A stretch of DNA of 35,403 nucleotides from a virus. Its lineage: Duplodnaviria > Heunggongvirae > Uroviricota > Caudoviricetes. The translations under genes were made by a program, and so were the position numbers. Below the pieces are notes generated by a model. The model saw only the letters and a program-made list of their open reading frames with translations, was not told the DNA's origin and ran no database searches. The stretch is taken from IMG/VR virus record IMGVR_UViG_2648501437_000004, one strand, 5' to 3'. Positions 1 through 8,887 of the stretch are shown here, piece after piece. Within the stretch, counting starts at the first letter, position 1. Every line of letters starts with the position of its first letter.

Positions 1-398
1 CCAGAGCCGCGCCACTGATGCAGTCACTGTATGACTGGATACAGCAACAGATGAAAACACTGTCGCGTCACTCAGATACGGCAAAAGCGTTCGCATACCT
101 GCTGAAACAGTGGGATGCACTGAACGTGTACTGCAGTAATGGCTGGGTGGAAATCGACAACAACATCGCAGAGAACGCCTTACGGGGAGTGGCCGTAGGC
201 CGGAAAAACTGGATGTTCGCGGGTTCCGACAGCGGTGGTGAACATGCGGCGGTGTTGTACTCGCTGATCGGCACATGCCGTCTGAACAATGTGGAGCCAG
301 AAAAGTGGCTGCGTTACGTCATTGAACATATCCAGGACTGGCCGGCAAACCGGGTACGCGATCTGTTGCCCTGGAAAGTTGATCTGAGCTCTCAGTAA
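1..398 (+). CDS. IS66-family transposase (TnpC-like), C-terminal portion, 5'-partial
   Basis: Translation ...[59 protein letters not shown]... matches the conserved IS66 transposase C-terminal region; the frame is open to the window start. Confidence 0.85.
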
Positions 399-507: not shown

Positions 508-1269
508 TTACGAGGAAGCGTTAGCTATTTGAGCTTGTGTAAATTCGAAACCAGAATTTTGTAACCGTTGCACTAGACGAGGAACTGTTTCACGTACATG
601 GTCGTTGAAATTCAGATACAAAATCCCGTTAGCATCAGAAGGCTGTTCTAGGTGCTGTTTCTGAAGGATTGCTACATTGCTGCGCCCTAAGGACGAAAGA
701 AGCATACCCATCTCGAGTACAACGTTCTGTCTTGCGCGGGGTTGGATTTCTGCTTCACCGGCGCGCTTTGAGTATCCCATATCATCAGGTGTCAAAAGAA
801 CAATCCCGAAACGGGTAGCAGTTTGTCCTTGCCCAATTTCACGTTCAAGCTCTTCAATAATGGTGAGTCCAGTCCCTCCCGTATTCTGCAAAATGAAATG
901 GTCTGGTAATCCAAGTTTATGAAGGATTAGCTCAAGTTGCTCCTTTGCAGTATGGTCATGGCCGTGAACAATGAATATCTTTTTGGGGAGCTCAGATGGC
1001 TGTTCTACGGCTAGTGGTGTTGCCGTGGGCGGCGTTCCTAAATGGGTCATTATTGCAGTTTCAACATTGGGACGTTCTTGAGGGTTACCTTGAAACTGAA
1101 TGGTCCGGGTGGTGTAAAGGTTAACAATTACGCCATTCGTTAAACGATAGCAGTCACAAGTCTCACGCTGTTCGTGGGAAAAATTGGTGAACCCACACTC
1201 CCTCAAAAAGTCAGGAAAAGTTTCTCTCGAGTATGGATAGGTGATCGGCATTTCAGTTAGTTCCTGCAT
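508..1269 (-). CDS. TIR-like domain protein (COG4271/PF10137-type predicted nucleotide-binding TIR-like domain) with an unknown ~90-aa N-terminal domain
   Basis: ATG at 1267-1269 with AAAGGA Shine-Dalgarno. C-terminal half KIFIVHGHDHTAKEQLELILHKLGLPDHFILQ...TIIEELE...FGIVLLTPDDMG matches the FIVHGHD...VLLTPDD signature recalled for this TIR-like family. GC is visibly lower than the adjacent polymerase gene. Confidence 0.55.
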   Translation of the reverse strand: MQELTEMPITYPYSRETFPDFLRECGFTNFSHEQRETCDCYRLTNGVIVNLYTTRTIQFQGNPQERPNVETAIMTHLGTPPTATPLAVEQPSELPKKIFIVHGHDHTAKEQLELILHKLGLPDHFILQNTGGTGLTIIEELEREIGQGQTATRFGIVLLTPDDMGYSKRAGEAEIQPRARQNVVLEMGMLLSSLGRSNVAILQKQHLEQPSDANGILYLNFNDHVRETVPRLVQRLQNSGFEFTQAQIANASS

Positions 1270-1333: not shown

Positions 1334-3397
1334 TCAATCTTTTTTGTAGTGGTACGCCTCAAAACCGCCAGCGTTCAGTAGGATATCGGGCGCCCATTCG
1401 GGGTCAGTGGAGAGAAGCGCGGAAAGCGCTTTATCGTTGAAATCTTCTGTGTCAGGTGCTTCGGTGATCACCTCGTCGTGTACCGTCAGCACAATGCTGT
1501 AACCGGCATCTTCGATAAGCGGCATGTTTCCGGCCAGAATGTCGCGGGCGGCCGCCTGGGTGATGTTCTCCACCAGCTTTCCGCCGTAGGTTTTGAGTCG
1601 TTGCCATTTACGCGAATAAGAGTTAACCCCCATGTAGGTGATATTCCCTTTTTCGATAACCGGAGACGGGTAGCATACAGCGCGTCCGGATGGTAGCTGT
1701 ATGCGCAGCCACGCGCCATCGCGGCGGATTTTAAGATAACCGCAATACAATGTTTTTTGCGGTGTGGCGATTGCAGTGCGGACGGTGCGCTCCAGTTCGT
1801 ACCAGAAATCACAGGTCGCGGGATGCGCCCGGCGCCAGAGACGTTTAAGTGAGTCGCAGGCGATAAATACCCGTTCAGAAAGCCCGTAGGTTGACTTGCG
1901 TTTAACCGATTCGTCGTACCAGCTTTTCGCCTCGCGGATAACATCGCGGGGAATGTTTGGTAGTGCGGCGTTCGCCAGCTCGTCGAGATCGAGACCGTAA
2001 ACCAGTGCAAAAGTGATGAAGGCCGACACACCACCACCATAACCCAGACCGAGTTCCATGACTTTACCGATCTGACGCATGTGTTTATCAACATCATCTG
2101 GTGCAATATCGAAAGCTTTTGCATACGCCAGTTTATATAAGTCCGGACCCGTTCCGGCGTCGTACTCTCTGAATGCATTCAGTTTCCATTCTTCTCCCGC
2201 CAGCCATGCCAGCATACGGCCTTCAATGTTCGACAAGTCACTTACCACCAGCTTTTTGCCTGTTGGCGCGATAATGCAGCCACGTAACGCTGAACTGGTT
2301 AGTTCCATGATATTGTCAAACAGCAGGTCTGCACATCCGGCTTTCAGTGCTTCGATGCCTTCGTCTATTTGTTCCTGTTTTAGTGAAGGGCGGGGAAGGT
2401 TCTGGGGCTGGAATAGCCGTCCGGCCCAACGACCGGTACGTGACGCCCCGCAGAACTGTAGCGTACCGCGTAAGCGCCCGTCGTGGCTTACGCCTTTCAT
2501 CAGTGCCTTGTATTTACTGGTGCTGGTAGTACTGGCCTGCAGGCGGATAGCCAGCAGTTCTTTCACGGCAGATGGTAAATCGGGGTCGGCAATACGACGT
2601 TCCAGAGTACTGCGTTGCATGTCTGGTAGCTCCACACCGTAGGATTCAACAATGTGCTTAATCAACGCGTCTCGTTGTGTGGCTGCCTGCACTTCGCCAT
2701 CAGTCATTTCCTGTGTACGCTTTGCCAGGCGCTTTTGCTCCTGGTCTACCGCTTCGATCGCAGCGCGCGCGAGTTGAATGTCCATGCAGACGCCCCGGTC
2801 GTTGATCTGCTGATCACGATGCCAGAGCGCCAGTTCTGTCCCCTGATAATTCCACTTCGGCAGACGTTTATAGACTTCGCGCATTGCCTCGATATCCAGT
2901 CCGGCGTAAGCAACAAAGCGCCGCCATTCTTCCGGGTGGGTTTTACTGGTGGCCCGACGCAGTTTGCTGTTTTTCGGGCGTGGCTTACAGAACAGCTGGA
3001 TCAGCGCTTTACCTTCTTTGTCCTTCGCTTTGTCTTGCGGGACGCCGAGTATTTCGCAGAGTTCCCCCAGAGACCCCGGGAGGCCGTGCGCCAGCGCCTG
3101 CACCATTGTGTCGCGCCAACGTTCGACTGGCGGTGCCAGGCGCGGCATTGCATAACGCAGAACGGTGCGGTCGAAGTGAGAGTTATGGAAATAAAGCAGG
3201 GTTTCAGGGTCTGCGATTGCTTCGTATAAGCCGTGTGGAATACCACCACCGGCAGTGATATCCCACACGTTTACTGGCCCGTCGTTGATAGCCCATGCGA
3301 AAAGCATCACTTCAACGCCTTCGGCATACGCATGGGTACCGTTCGTAATAGGGATTTCGCAATAGGTTTCCAGGTCGCCCCATAGTATATTGGACAT
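1334..3397 (-). CDS. Family A DNA polymerase (Pol I-like, phage type) with N-terminal 3'-5' exonuclease-like region
   Basis: 687 aa, ATG at 3395-3397 with AAGG Shine-Dalgarno. Motif A-like [21 protein letters not shown], motif B-like [16 protein letters not shown], motif C-like VHDE. Confidence 0.85.
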
Positions 3398-3443
3398 GTG
3401 TTTACCTTGGTTTTTATTCTATTAACTGATTAAAAGATTAATT

Positions 3444-4073
3444 ATGCATATGATCCAATACTTGATTGACCATACAGAGCATCTGGAGAAAATAGCTGGA
3501 TATATTTTTTCATGTTTGATTGTTATGGGAGTCTGGATAAGAAAGATTATTTTTAATTATAAGTATAAAGAGCCTAAATATGTTAAGAAGTTAATTTTAT
3601 ATTTAGTTAAGTATGAACGTTATCTGGATGAGGAGGATAAGAGTGCCATAGAAAAAAGAATAAATGATAAAATTATTCGTGATGCGCTGAAATTGCAATC
3701 ATCTTATAACCGAAGAGATGTTATTTACATTTGCAATAGATTAGAAAAAAGACAGTATATAAATCAGTTGATTAAGCTTCAGAATTATATAGAGAAAGAT
3801 AACGGAGTGTTTTTTATTAATGTTGATTTTTCAGGTTTTTTATTTATTATTAGTCGTCTGTTTTCCTTTCTGTGTTTTGTGCTGTTTACCCTTTTTTCTA
3901 TTATCTGCATTATTTCCATAGGGCAAAATGAAGGCCTTTTAAATTATCTTGTGTATATGGTTATGATAATAGTTTTAGAGACTGTTGGTTTTTGGATGTA
4001 TGATACTTTCCCGTCTAAGAAAAAGATCTGTGAACTAAATAAAGAATTGAGAAAGATTAAGATTCCTGAGTGA
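3444..4073 (+). CDS. AT-rich hypothetical membrane protein (accessory/moron gene)
   Basis: 209-aa ORF opposite to the flanking operon. GC roughly 25-35% by hand count versus about 50-55% around it. Hydrophobic segments IAGYIFSCLIVMGVWI, FLFIISRLFSFLCFVLFTLFSIICIISIG and LVYMVMIIVLETVGFWMY; Lys/Glu-rich soluble middle. Confidence 0.7.
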   Translation: MHMIQYLIDHTEHLEKIAGYIFSCLIVMGVWIRKIIFNYKYKEPKYVKKLILYLVKYERYLDEEDKSAIEKRINDKIIRDALKLQSSYNRRDVIYICNRLEKRQYINQLIKLQNYIEKDNGVFFINVDFSGFLFIISRLFSFLCFVLFTLFSIICIISIGQNEGLLNYLVYMVMIIVLETVGFWMYDTFPSKKKICELNKELRKIKIPE

Positions 4074-4125
4074 TTATACGCCTAATCAGTAGCCCGGTGT
4101 TTAACCGGGCGTCTATGAAGTAGGG

Positions 4126-4674
4126 TTAAATTAGTGCTTCAGCATCAGCACCTTCGCTGATATCGTCGAAATCGTCAGCGCTTGCCACTCCGCCGCCAGC
4201 GAGTGCATCGCCGTCTCGCAGGAACTGGACTCCGCCGAGTGAGGCATTAATGCGTTTACCGAAATTATTGTCCTGTGCCCAGATATCGATAACGGCGTTT
4301 ACATAGCACCCTGCATAGGGACGTCCGTCAGCCTGAATAAGTGGCGAACGATCGCGATCAAGAACAGCTGGGCGCGCTTTGTTAGCAGCATTCAGGAAGA
4401 AATTACCGGGGAAGCCTTCATACTCTGCTTTTTCATCACCATCATGCAGGCACAGATTGAGTTTTTTCTCCAGCTGGTTATAAATGGGCTCCCACTTCTC
4501 TCCCCATTTTTCCTTCGCTACCTGCTTCATAGCTTTACGGATTTCTTCCAGTTGTGGGTGTTTGGGAGACATTAAAAATACTGCGGAGAAACGCGGATCG
4601 CCTTCGCCGTTTACAGTTTTAGCTTCAAACAGAGACGGGAAGGCCAGACGAACATTGTTCAGCTTCAGTTTCAT
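4126..4674 (-). CDS. DUF2815-type phage protein (predicted ssDNA-binding, SSB-like) with acidic C-terminal tail
   Basis: N-terminus MKLKLNNVRLAFPSLFE typical of DUF2815 as recalled; lies in a DUF2800/DUF2815/PolA replication module; acidic C-terminus ADDFDDISEGADAEALI. Confidence 0.7.
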   Translation of the reverse strand: MKLKLNNVRLAFPSLFEAKTVNGEGDPRFSAVFLMSPKHPQLEEIRKAMKQVAKEKWGEKWEPIYNQLEKKLNLCLHDGDEKAEYEGFPGNFFLNAANKARPAVLDRDRSPLIQADGRPYAGCYVNAVIDIWAQDNNFGKRINASLGGVQFLRDGDALAGGGVASADDFDDISEGADAEALI

Positions 4675-4689
4675 GGGTATTTCCTTAAA

Positions 4690-5991
4690 TCAGATGAGGT
4701 CTGCGGTTAGCGTATCGTCGGATACGTCGTCGAAATCATTTACAGGGTTGATATTGAGTGCGGGGCGTGGGTCTGACTCGGGAACGACGGTGGGTTTTCC
4801 ATCAGCTCGTGTTATCAGTGCCTCGACTTTTGACCAACGGCGCGGACTGGCCTTTTTGATAAGTTTTTCGGCTTTTGTGGGACTAATAAGTTTAAAGTCG
4901 AATACTTCTTCAGTTTTGTACCTGAACTGGTCCTTCAGAAGTGCGCGAGCTGCCTCTTCATCACTCCAGGCCCGGTTACCTTGTTTTCCTGTTACCAGTT
5001 TAAACCCCGGTACCGGATGTCCGGCATTGAGTTCATCGTGAACCCGGTCCCGTACTGCCTTTAGCCAGGATTCAATAAAGTCGGCCTGGCTATAGATCTC
5101 TGCAAGCTGCTCAATGGTTAACAGAGGTACACGTGCGCTGGCATTGGTGATTATTTCGCTGACAGGCTTTGTCAGATCTTCAAAATCGCTGGCCGCTGTT
5201 TGTAAATGCTGCATTTTCTGGGCAGTGCAAATAGCTTTTGCTTTACAGAAGCGGCACTGTTTTTCTCCAGGTATGAAGTTTTCCAGCGGTAGTGTCTCAA
5301 TGCCTTCGCATTCAGCAATATTGAGAACAAGGATCGCACTGGTTGCGGCCTCCAGTGCCCGTTCACCGAAAGACTGAAGTTCCTGTACGGTTAACGACCA
5401 TTCTGAAACGTGGTTGAGCCTTGGCTGGTGAATAAATAATCTTACAGTCTCAAAGTCATACAGCATGCTGAATTGTTCGAGAGCACCCAGAGCATACAGT
5501 TGTAGTTGCTCATTTTGTTCTGCATCAATGCGGACGCCTTTGCCATATTTCAGGTCGTGGATTTGTAATTCGTTACCAGCGATGATTATGCCGTCGGCAG
5601 TTCCGAAAGATTCTTCCACACCCGTTATATGTGAGAAATCAACACGTTGTTCAACCAATAGTTCATTATTCTGTGCAAGAGTCCAGACCGTATCAACATA
5701 CCGGCCGACGGCTTCGACCATTTCATCATCCACCTGTGGGCCAGATGTATCATCAGGATTTTCGCGAAGGGGGTATGAGCCGAGAAACATAGAAACATTG
5801 CATCCGGCGTAGTGTTCCGGGTGGCTTTGCCTGTTTCGTAGAACTTTTTCAGCAAGCGCGTGCGCTGTAGTGCCCTCGATTGCAAAAGTTGTTTCTTTAT
5901 CCGGTTGTGTGGCCTCCAGCGCCAGACTTCCTGGGCAGCGCATCCATCGATGCGCTGATGATGGAGAAAGTTGTGCGTGAACGTCTGGCAT
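4690..5991 (-). CDS. DUF2800-type PD-(D/E)XK nuclease (Cas4/RecB-like) with C-terminal Cys cluster and acidic tail
   Basis: N-terminal [15 protein letters not shown] motif; cysteine cluster [10 protein letters not shown]; acidic C-terminus [16 protein letters not shown]; co-directional with polymerase. Confidence 0.75.
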
Positions 5992-7266: not shown

Positions 7267-7785
7267 ATGTCTGAAGAAAAAGGAATTCTTTCCCGGATAA
7301 CTGAATCGTTATCCGGTGTGGGAGGAGCAATTAAAAGCGCGGTTGGAGCAGCAAGAGAGATTCAGAATCTGACTGTCGACTATGCAGTTAAAGAGAAGAC
7401 GCACATCTTACTCGATAAGCTAATGGATGTTCAGATGCAGCAAATGTCGCTTCAGGAGCTGCTGATTGCGGCTAAGGAGAAAATTGTTGAACTGGAAAAT
7501 GAGAAAGTAAAGCAAGAGAACTGGGCCGCTGAAGCGGCGAGCTATGAACTTTACCAGCCTATGCGGGGTACTCTGGTCTATCGCAGCAAGCTTTCTGCAG
7601 ATGCTGACCAATCTCCGGTTTATATTTGTCCCAATTGCTACGAGCAAAAGAGAAAATCTATATTGCAAGCGGAAGGTCTGGTTACTAAGCTAGGCCTTGG
7701 GCGAGTCGTTAATATGGTTTGTTCGTACTGTAGGGCTTCCTATCTGTTCAACCCGAAATGCTTTAGAGGCCCGACTGCCTTCTGA
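7267..7785 (+). CDS. Hypothetical protein with coiled-coil segment and C-terminal Cys4 zinc-ribbon-like motif
   Basis: 172 aa, ATG at 7267 with GAGAGAGA purine-rich Shine-Dalgarno. LQELLIAAKEKIVELENEKVKQE coiled-coil-like; CPNC...18 aa...CSYC. Convergent with CI and the PL-like transcript. Confidence 0.6.
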   Translation: MSEEKGILSRITESLSGVGGAIKSAVGAAREIQNLTVDYAVKEKTHILLDKLMDVQMQQMSLQELLIAAKEKIVELENEKVKQENWAAEAASYELYQPMRGTLVYRSKLSADADQSPVYICPNCYEQKRKSILQAEGLVTKLGLGRVVNMVCSYCRASYLFNPKCFRGPTAF

Positions 7786-8212: not shown

Positions 8213-8887
8213 TTAGTACATGCGTAGCGCGGATTTGGCGATCCCCGCCACGTAATGGATTTTTTCAATGTTTTCGCGTGGTACTCTGACTGGTGGATGA
8301 TCTTCATTTACAGACATTAGATGGAACAGGCCATCGCGTTCGAACAAGAAGGTTTTAACCATGACCTCACCGTCCCGGGTAACCACAAGTACTTCATCAC
8401 CAGGAGTGTAGTCGTGGTTGGGTTCGACGATTACGAACTCACCCTCTTTGATTCTAGGCATCATTGAATCACCAACACATTTCAGGGCGTATGCATCTTC
8501 ATCCTTTGTCGGCCAGTATATGAAACCATCACTGCTACCTACTGAATATTGGGTGTCGCTCCAAAGTCCTCCAACGCCTAGCTGAGTGTTTCCCAAAACA
8601 GGTACTTTATTAAACCTAAGAGAAATATACGTTTTTATACCTGTCGCGTCCTCTTTCTCCATTTCTTGAAGGCTCCTTTCTGCCAGGTCTATTGGTGACA
8701 CGTGGAAGTAGTCGGCGATCTGCTTTAACGTTGCGTATTTCGGATCTTTCACCTCTCCTGATACCAGCCTGTGTAGCGTTGGTTGGTTCAGCTGTAACCG
8801 ACGTGCCAGCTCAGTTATCGAGCTTATCTTGGTTTTGTCCATCAGGTACTTGATGTTTTGAGAAAGGATATCGGTAGTATCAATCAT
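8213..8887 (-). CDS. cI: CI-like repressor (N-terminal HTH, C-terminal S24 LexA-like autopeptidase domain)
   Basis: 224 aa; HTH-like TELARRLQLNQPTLHRLVSGE; C-terminal S24 signature CVGDSMMP ... VLVV ... KTF with conserved Ser and Lys. Confidence 0.9.
   Translation of the reverse strand: MIDTTDILSQNIKYLMDKTKISSITELARRLQLNQPTLHRLVSGEVKDPKYATLKQIADYFHVSPIDLAERSLQEMEKEDATGIKTYISLRFNKVPVLGNTQLGVGGLWSDTQYSVGSSDGFIYWPTKDEDAYALKCVGDSMMPRIKEGEFVIVEPNHDYTPGDEVLVVTRDGEVMVKTFLFERDGLFHLMSVNEDHPPVRVPRENIEKIHYVAGIAKSALRMY

Follow-up and report, generated by a model that had tools for sequence, protein, structure and literature searches.

ORF209, a predicted three-transmembrane protein from a hypervariable slot in the replication operon of an Escherichia coli prophage, and its possible role in phage exclusion

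A hypervariable slot between the SSB and polymerase genes

We analyzed the IMG/VR record IMGVR_UViG_2648501437_000004 (Uroviricota, Caudoviricetes; 35,403 nucleotides, hereafter the window), focusing on ORF209, an AT-rich open reading frame (ORF) of 209 codons at positions 3444–4073. ORF209 represents one of the alleles of an accessory ("moron") cassette that occupies a hypervariable slot flanked by the genes of a single-stranded DNA-binding protein (SSB) and a DNA polymerase (pol), and it is shown to be dispensable for the phage. It is the founding member of an unannotated family of predicted three-transmembrane (3-TM) proteins, for which we tentatively suggest a role in the exclusion of other phages. 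The window comes from a temperate myophage of E. coli in its prophage state. In E. coli IAI1, the same prophage adjoins yfhL and has the gene order integrase, DEAD helicase, VRR-NUC, TIR, pol, SSB, DUF2800, cI-like repressor, VapE. The isolated phages vB_EcoM-606R2, 689R2, and 611R5 carry ORF209 at 99% identity.

A survey of 5,426 complete E. coli genomes with a 901-nt query spanning the ORF209 locus identified matches in 159 genomes; in 67 of them, the match extends over ORF209. In the remaining 92, it stops at the polymerase start codon (window position 3397), begins only at position 4092, or both, and these breakpoints delimit the swappable cassette. Further, 80 related loci were gathered from IMG/VR by the SSB protein, and the distance from the SSB stop codon to the polymerase start codon was measured in 78 of them. 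The slot size varies from 74–80 bp (empty slots, 12 loci) up to 2,556 bp and forms about 20 size classes; the 728-bp class with ORF209 comprises nine loci and one truncated contig (10/78). The flanks hardly vary: SSB is 91–99% identical over the 80 loci, and the polymerase N-terminus is 95–100% identical among the E. coli-type loci irrespective of the slot allele. The description of ORF209 as a moron in the first-pass annotation of this DNA thus holds, as the gene shows both presence/absence variation among close relatives and a composition distinct from its surroundings; rather than being conserved in all related phages, it is missing in most close prophages, replaced by nothing or by unrelated genes. 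The main elements of the locus are as follows.

1334–3397, minus strand: family A DNA polymerase, conserved left flank (PF00476, E 5e-14)
3398–4091, no strand: swappable cassette, from the polymerase start codon to the backbone hairpin (match breakpoints at 3397 and 4092 in E. coli genomes without ORF209)
3444–4073, plus strand: ORF209 coding sequence, 209 amino acids and a stop, ATG to TGA
4092–4110, no strand: hairpin GCCCGG-TGTTTAA-CCGGGC of the phage backbone, which marks the right end of the cassette and separates the convergent genes of ORF209 and SSB
4126–4674, minus strand: Enc34-type single-stranded DNA-binding protein (DUF2815), conserved right flank (PF10991, E 4e-44)
4690–5991, minus strand: DUF2800 PD-(D/E)XK nuclease, forming a replication module with pol and SSB

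The cargo of the slot is highly diverse. In 13E0725, the slot is filled by a 199-aa protein on the opposite strand; in Rb-50, by a 493-aa SIR2 protein that matches the PADLOC candidate PDC-S25 (E 4e-157); in M-17 and EH2252, by a 229-aa protein together with Nmad5. Other occupants include an SPFH/Band-7 lipoprotein, a DUF4145 protein, an AntA-type antirepressor, a NUMOD4-HNH endonuclease, single-TM proteins of 166–174 aa, and small proteins of 60–89 aa. Such a combination of conserved flanking core genes and diverse cargo is characteristic of prophage hotspots, with the qualification that only candidate defence genes are found here, next to non-defence cargo. The defence candidates in this slot or the adjacent one are SIR2 (PDC-S25), TIR (PDC-S35, E 4e-109), and the DUF4145 protein; the PDC models represent candidates that have not yet been validated (Payne et al., bioRxiv 10.1101/2024.01.29.577857). 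At five loci with a slot of about 1667 bp (L025, L026, L031, L032, L048), the SIR2 cassette consists of two ORFs of 230 and 237 aa, unlike the intact 493-aa gene of Rb-50 (L003, 3442–4923), and is possibly a frameshifted or inactivated copy; these loci have a divergent polymerase N-terminus (65–72% identity).

Prophage morons encoding small membrane proteins, as well as variable hotspots between conserved phage genes, are well known (PMC3594210, PMC9122126), and the slot resembles previously described moron elements and the P2/P4 hotspots (Cumby et al., 2012, PMC3594210; Rousset et al., 2022, PMC9122126) in that a fixed site between core genes accepts many unrelated, compositionally deviant, dispensable cassettes, some of which are defence candidates (SIR2 PDC-S25 and DUF4145, with TIR PDC-S35 in the next slot). 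At that, it belongs to another phage group, defined by the pol A / DUF2815 / DUF2800 replication module; it is situated in the middle of an early replication operon, each cassette supplying the polymerase translation-initiation region; and its occupants are mixed, with no demonstrable enrichment in validated defence systems. We found no description of a hotspot between SSB and pol genes in the searchable literature, and a search for the accession and the phage names yielded nothing.

Composition and conservation of ORF209

The location of ORF209 on the strand opposite to its flanking genes within the replication operon was given exactly in the first-pass annotation, all neighbours being on the minus strand, and the compositional contrast noted there is equally clear. 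In 200-nt sliding windows, the GC content is 0.255–0.33 across positions 3401–4100, against 0.45–0.60 in the flanks (0.51–0.60 to the left and 0.45–0.53 to the right). The GC content of ORF209 itself is 0.287 (0.305 in third codon positions), compared to 0.542 for pol, 0.494 for SSB, 0.487 for the DUF2800 nuclease, and 0.50 for the whole window.

A trivial possibility is that ORF209 is a non-functional chance ORF or a decaying remnant in AT-rich junk DNA. Indeed, it has neither annotation nor a recognizable domain, no promoter or terminator is detectable above chance, and its ATG is not preceded by a convincing Shine-Dalgarno sequence. However, an ORF of 630 nt is very unlikely to arise by chance in DNA with 29% GC. 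Moreover, the reading frame is uninterrupted in all ten surveyed copies, where change is mainly synonymous (substitutions mostly in the third codon position; pairwise dN/dS mostly 0.2–0.5), full-length homologues at 23–43% identity retain the topology and the motifs, and a 20-sequence alignment yields an AlphaFold2 (AF2) model with a pLDDT of 82.5. We consider the chance of a non-gene practically nil: judging from this pattern of substitution, ORF209 is a real gene under constraint, and its conservation already refutes the opposite. The PHROG match, phrog_10579 (unknown function), spans residues 28–209 and would imply a start at Met28; since residues 1–27 align to the homologues P0004 and P0005, the start at position 3444 is favoured.

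Boundaries of the cassette

A palindrome following the ORF209 stop codon was also reported in the first-pass annotation. It does exist, at positions 4093–4109 (not 4095–4111), with a stem extendable to 4092–4110, and it belongs to the backbone and not to the cassette. In a 61-nt context, the hairpin has dG of -20.7 and -18.5 on the two strands, with z-scores of -2.8 and -3.8 relative to shuffled sequences. Neither strand has a T-tract, and the hairpin is therefore no canonical intrinsic terminator; a role as a general inter-gene punctuation motif was rejected, as the hairpin occurs only once in the window. A hairpin of the form CCCGG-N5-7-CCGGG is situated directly 3' of the SSB stop codon in most slot alleles, and because it is present even in the empty slot, it is the first element of the phage backbone and not the cassette's own terminator. 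At four loci (L047, L052, L067, L068), co-directional cassettes with Nmad5 or the SPFH lipoprotein are bracketed by two copies of the CCCGG...CCGGG hairpin, of which the downstream one is followed by the leader 'TGTTTTGCAAAGAG...CGCAAAGCACCCGCGAGGA' known from the empty slot. The presence of hairpins at both cassette ends suggests that the hairpin region serves as a recombination or insertion boundary.

The following elements are found at the opposite edge of the cassette.

3398–3443, no strand: divergent 46-bp intergenic region derived from the cassette
3391–3420, plus strand: weak candidate sigma-70 promoter of ORF209 (TGGACA-18-TATTCT), a 9/12 match to the consensus with the -35 element in the first polymerase codons

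The intergenic region holds both the Shine-Dalgarno-like AAGG of the polymerase gene (minus strand, 3405–3408) and the -10-like hexamer of the candidate promoter. Promoter-like sites in the region are about as numerous as in shuffled sequences (5 vs. 4.3 ± 2.1), and Rfam and tRNA scans gave no match. The sequence directly 5' of the polymerase ATG, including the Shine-Dalgarno-like element, differs by slot allele. Since the slot is inside an essential early operon, each cassette must maintain read-through into the polymerase gene and supply its ribosome-binding site, and such an operon constraint is unusual for a hotspot.

A small family with deeply diverged alleles

The family was searched for in three ways: by a word-seeded search over 5.8 billion clusters, by scanning 1.84 billion representatives exhaustively with phmmer, and in one genome per species for 185,579 species. 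The first search retrieved a single full-length cluster with 456 members (Enterobacteriaceae); the second, ten proteins of the ORF209 family; and the third, only two more loci, in Serratia and in an Enterobacterales metagenome-assembled genome. By these sequence searches, the family is very small and restricted to Enterobacterales. ORF209 has no match in Pfam, NCBIfam, PADLOC, the PDB, or among viral folds; the family is thus unannotated and without detectable relatives, while the kind of element it represents is well known.

A profile built from ORF209 and its relatives matches three alternative occupants of the same slot, of 199, 208, and 223 aa (E 2.8e-16 for the 208-aa and 1.5e-17 for the 223-aa protein). 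These alleles belong to the same family and occupy the same site in the same antisense orientation as ORF209, and they are just 17–20% identical to it. Overall, the four slot alleles are less than 25% identical, while the backbone genes around them are 95–99% identical. Among complete E. coli genomes, 13 carry the 199-aa allele and 7 the 208-aa allele.

Outside this slot, one family member is solitary near TraG in a region resembling an integrative and conjugative element (ICE); P0005, which is 38% identical to ORF209, occupies the gpS/gpV slot of a P2-like prophage (L089/L090); one immediately precedes the antiterminator Q gene of a lambdoid prophage; one lies at a prophage end, one isolated between SLT and thrS, and one in an integrase island of Serratia sp. 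Ag1 beside a DUF6338 membrane protein (L098, 2805–8575). In all cases, family members are solitary, AT-rich genes in mobile-element cargo. Two of these neighbourhoods contain further genes of interest. In the Serratia sp. Ag1 island, an AAA_21/AAA_15 (AbiEii/OLD-like) ATPase and the two unannotated proteins on either side of it form a block of three genes, and the neighbourhood resembles a defence island. At a prophage end (L092/L093, 2404–3150), a protein with a Tad2-like (anti-Thoeris) domain and a HicA toxin are encoded within a few kb of P0010, the Xenorhabdus-type family member.

The first-pass annotation took the low GC content for a sign of recent acquisition, and this part of it is not supported by the family data. 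Members with less than 30% mutual identity from five other contexts have a GC content of 28–40% in surroundings of 42–56%. As low GC is a lasting trait of the whole family, it does not indicate recent acquisition, and together with the presence of four deeply diverged alleles in one slot it points to an old resident of the hotspot and not a fresh import.

Predicted topology and conserved motifs

The several hydrophobic helices and the charged soluble region noticed in the first-pass annotation correspond, by hydropathy and the AF2 model, to three predicted TM segments and a basic region at residues 38–127. The parts of the protein, all encoded on the plus strand, are predicted as follows.

3492–3554: TM1, residues 17–37 (hydropathy; AF2 helix 11–37)
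3555–3824: basic cytoplasmic domain, residues 38–127, with 20 K/R and 13 D/E in 90 residues; four helices followed by a beta-hairpin
3825–4007: C-terminal TM hairpin formed by TM2 (residues 128–160), the periplasmic loop QNEG, and TM3 (residues 165–188) (hydropathy; AF2 helices 132–160 and 165–188)
4008–4070: basic cytoplasmic tail, residues 189–209, with the motif FPxxxxIxxxNxELxK (invariant alignment columns)

The model based on the 20-sequence alignment has a pTM of 0.62; a single-sequence model (pLDDT 55) was discarded. Along the chain, it consists of a short N-terminal helix, TM1, cytoplasmic helices, a beta-hairpin, the TM hairpin, and a C-terminal helix at residues 192–202. The elements of the central domain are helices 43–56, 63–82, 90–99, and 103–111 and strands 116–119 and 122–125, with pLDDT mostly 74–93. 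In all twelve aligned members, positive charges are distributed alike: 14–21 K/R in the central domain, 3–8 in the tail, and 0–1 in the loop between TM2 and TM3; the N-terminal stub has 0–3, or 8 in one member with a 61-residue N-terminal extension. Based on this distribution and the positive-inside rule, ORF209 is predicted to have an N-out/C-in topology with nearly all of its mass in the cytoplasm.

The tail is the most conserved region of the family (38% mean pairwise identity), with two invariant residues (N199, L202) and two nearly invariant ones (K204, P190). The second is the segment 62–100 (29%), and the central domain bears the motif YL(S/D)xxDKxxIxxxINxEIMR...NRxxLIYI. Conservation is lowest in the TM and periplasmic parts (16–22%). 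A glutamate in the middle of TM3 (E179) is invariant in ORF209, P0004, P0005, and P0006, although not family-wide.

The order of two helices (90–99, 103–111) and a beta-hairpin (116–119, 122–125) in the predicted structure fits a winged helix, and an NCBIfam model matches with its Rex N-terminal winged-helix region at a sub-threshold level (E 0.005, 16.8 bits against a cut-off of 198). Whole-protein fold searches returned no winged helix-turn-helix proteins; a profile of the domain alone (residues 38–127) had no match in Pfam or among PDB sequences, and Foldseek gave none below E 0.5 in the PDB and BFVD. The order of these elements and the weak Rex match hint at a winged-helix-like central domain.

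Comparison with known membrane proteins

The closest functional analogy is provided by SieA of phage P22, an inner-membrane protein of 162–164 aa with three TM segments, of which three types less than 30% identical occur at one locus; its last TM segment is followed, in the cytoplasm, by a conserved motif (Leavitt et al., mBio 2024, PMC10883804). Both proteins combine an N-terminal TM segment, a charged cytoplasmic segment, and a C-terminal TM pair, in ORF209 by prediction only. Both have a basic motif after the last TM segment (FGRYPGEAxxFNKEFIK in SieA, FPSKKKICELNKELRK in ORF209); both genes are AT-rich relative to the phage (GC of 0.337 for sieA and 0.287 for ORF209) and opposed in strand to an adjacent phage gene, the preceding gene 16 in the case of sieA; and in both, several types less than 30% identical share one fixed locus. 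On the other hand, the cytoplasmic domain of ORF209 is 90 aa long, with four predicted helices and a beta-hairpin, against approximately 45 aa in SieA, and the gene is situated in a replication-gene slot of a myophage, whereas sieA belongs to the immI region of a podophage. Homology to SieA (PF26849) was rejected: none of 20 members matches at E<=1, the hmmsearch score is -5, and the hhalign probability is 0.3%. The similarity to the C-terminal NKE[FL]xK of SieA is too short and AT-biased to count. Hence, by analogy, ORF209 may work like SieA; it is not a SieA protein.

Orf30 of P2 (L097, 440–1225; 261 aa, 34% GC, annotated as non-essential) is similar in being dispensable, AT-rich (0.34 vs. 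0.525), predicted to have three TM segments, and located in a fixed inter-operon slot between gpS and gpV. It is unrelated to ORF209 in sequence, and homology was rejected. RexB of lambda and SLATT proteins are likewise small helical inner-membrane proteins of prophages or defence loci that act on infection; neither has a significant sequence or fold match to ORF209. RexB depends on its partner RexA, and SLATT domains occur fused to a sensor or paired with one, whereas no partner of ORF209 is conserved.

Comparison with model collections produced only isolated matches. ORF209 matches no model of PADLOC-DB v2. Among its relatives, PDC-S47 is matched by one distant member (E 4e-4; 1 of 22) and does not recur, and the SLATT-DRT and REase models have single or noise-level matches; all three were rejected. 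The Pfam models of SieB, RexB, Imm, holins, and TraS yield nothing at E<=0.01, the best being noise (Phage_holin_3_6, E 0.25; TraS, E 0.1). DUF2207_C is matched by nine members at E >= 0.005, all below the cut-off, and one NCBI record names a family member "DUF2207 domain-containing"; we attribute these matches to the compositional similarity of TM hairpins and rejected the assignment.

Other variable positions of the prophage

The left end of the window (positions 1–427; ORF 18–398, plus strand) encodes the C-terminus of a transposase of the IS66 family (PF03050, PF13817). The intact IAI1 prophage is homologous to the window only from position 428 on, within the gene of an ANR-family regulator, and hence the insertion sequence interrupts the left arm of the prophage in this strain. 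The part with the helicase and VRR-NUC genes lies beyond the insertion sequence. In related prophages, the slot between the helicase (DEAD/SNF2) and VRR-NUC genes contains opposite-strand, AT-rich (0.32–0.34) genes of multi-TM proteins of 265 and 195 aa (L001, 3683–4480; L004/L005, 1542–2129), with no Pfam or PADLOC match.

What looks like another variable slot is situated between the early operon and the cI-like repressor gene. Here, the window encodes a 172-aa protein on the opposite strand (7267–7785, plus strand; phrog_1244, unknown function) with a coiled coil and a C-terminal CxxC...CxxC motif; the segment 7285–7876 cannot be aligned to the IAI1 prophage, where another gene, of 174 aa, is found at this place.

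508–1269, minus strand: TIR-domain protein (PF10137, CAP12/Pycsar-effector TIR; PADLOC PDC-S35, E 4e-109; GC 0.455)

The TIR gene is a presence/absence cassette downstream of the polymerase gene, found in 22 of the 78 related loci. Its alleles form two groups (91–99.6% and about 72% identical) and are independent of the allele in the SSB/pol slot.

Possible function of ORF209

The role we favour for ORF209, with limited confidence and by analogy, is membrane-level exclusion of phage genome entry. It involves one further gene of the window.

8213–8887: CI-type repressor (S24 peptidase and HTH domain matches)

In the lysogen, the repressor would silence the early operon, while ORF209 would be transcribed on its own, as expected from its antisense orientation relative to the lytic operon. 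The protein would insert in the inner membrane and protect the lysogen, and hence the prophage, from other phages, most likely by interfering with genome delivery across the inner membrane in the manner of P22 SieA. Its working surface would be the conserved cytoplasmic face formed by the central domain and the tail, and the divergence of the alleles would result from an arms race or from different ranges of targets. We count in favour of exclusion the solitary occurrence of the family in several kinds of cargo position and its diversity at a fixed locus, and further the cassette nature of the gene, its constraint, the rarity of the family, the predicted topology with its conserved parts, the defence candidates in this and the adjacent slot, and the SieA analogy.

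Several observations argue against it. Comparison with Pfam, NCBIfam, and PADLOC revealed no homologue among the validated exclusion and abortive-infection proteins, and fold searches returned only generic helical bundles. Scans for promoter and terminator consensus sequences at ORF209 and three homologues performed no better than on shuffled sequences. The hotspot also holds non-defence genes (Nmad5, the NUMOD4-HNH homing endonuclease, the AntA antirepressor, the SPFH lipoprotein), and as its cargo is mixed and the PDC models are unvalidated candidates, guilt by association is weak. Finally, the mass of the protein is almost wholly cytoplasmic, with little facing the periplasm, where the incoming phage machinery first arrives.

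Non-defence functions have to be considered along with exclusion of phages. ORF209 could be an accessory membrane protein involved in lysogenic conversion (envelope, transport, stress tolerance), a helper of the phage cycle (replication anchoring, lysis timing), or a factor of entry exclusion against conjugative elements. Entry-exclusion genes occur near conjugation genes in some elements, e.g., eex of SXT/R391 and traS of F; one family member has conjugation genes (TraG_N) at a distance of about 750 bp in an ICE, and one has a very weak TraS match (E 0.1), but this similarity is at the noise level and is missing in 21 of 22 members. The plainly non-defence cargo of the slot (Nmad5, HNH homing endonuclease, AntA, SPFH lipoprotein) is in line with such functions, as is the precedent of Orf30 from the equivalent slot of P2, which has had no assigned function since the genome was annotated. 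However, deep allelic diversification at a fixed locus within near-identical backbones is typical of conflict genes, and the antisense site inside the early operon speaks against a role in the lytic programme; we regard a non-defence role as rather unlikely. We deem it a little less probable still that ORF209 is an abortive-infection effector following the logic of RexB and SLATT, with the sensor and the effector in one polypeptide: inert in the membrane of the lysogen, it would sense a component of an infecting phage by its cytoplasmic domain, upon which the TM helices would oligomerise into a depolarising pore and the cell would die with the cycle of the invader still unfinished.

A partnership with the nearby TIR protein, in which the slot gene would be the executing membrane effector of a split Thoeris-like system, is suggested by the location of the TIR gene (PDC-S35, PF10137) one gene away in the window, and by the Rb-50 slot, where a SIR2 gene with ThsA-like matches (E 5e-18) is found beside a TIR gene. 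It is nevertheless highly improbable. The ORF209 allele is accompanied by TIR in six loci and not in four, TIR is also seen beside the empty slot and at least nine further slot classes, no TIR gene adjoins the family members of other elements, and both PDC-S35 and PDC-S25 are catalogued as single-gene candidates. As the two genes assort independently, the partnership was rejected and is largely refuted by the observed distribution.

Implications

A more far-reaching version of the exclusion role, which we regard as possible and doubtful, is that the ORF209 family constitutes a new single-gene anti-phage system, in which the winged-helix-like domain and the basic tail might sense phage DNA or the ejection machinery at the membrane, the diverged alleles would set the target ranges, and the SSB/pol, TIR, and helicase/VRR-NUC slots would make up an undescribed set of defence hotspots within the replication operon of a widespread group of temperate E. 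coli myophages. Unless this winged-helix or DNA-sensing reading is true, current understanding is not challenged, and should ORF209 have no anti-phage role, it is one more orphan membrane moron of prophages, of which there are many. If, on the other hand, exclusion of phages proves to be its function, a new compact single-protein family would be added to the inner-membrane exclusion and abortive factors, whose mechanisms are understood from very few examples (SieA, Imm, RexB). The four alleles, less than 25% identical in an otherwise isogenic backbone and accompanied by an empty-slot control, would then form a ready system for mapping specificity, and the SSB/pol slot is a practical site to mine for accessory or defence genes.

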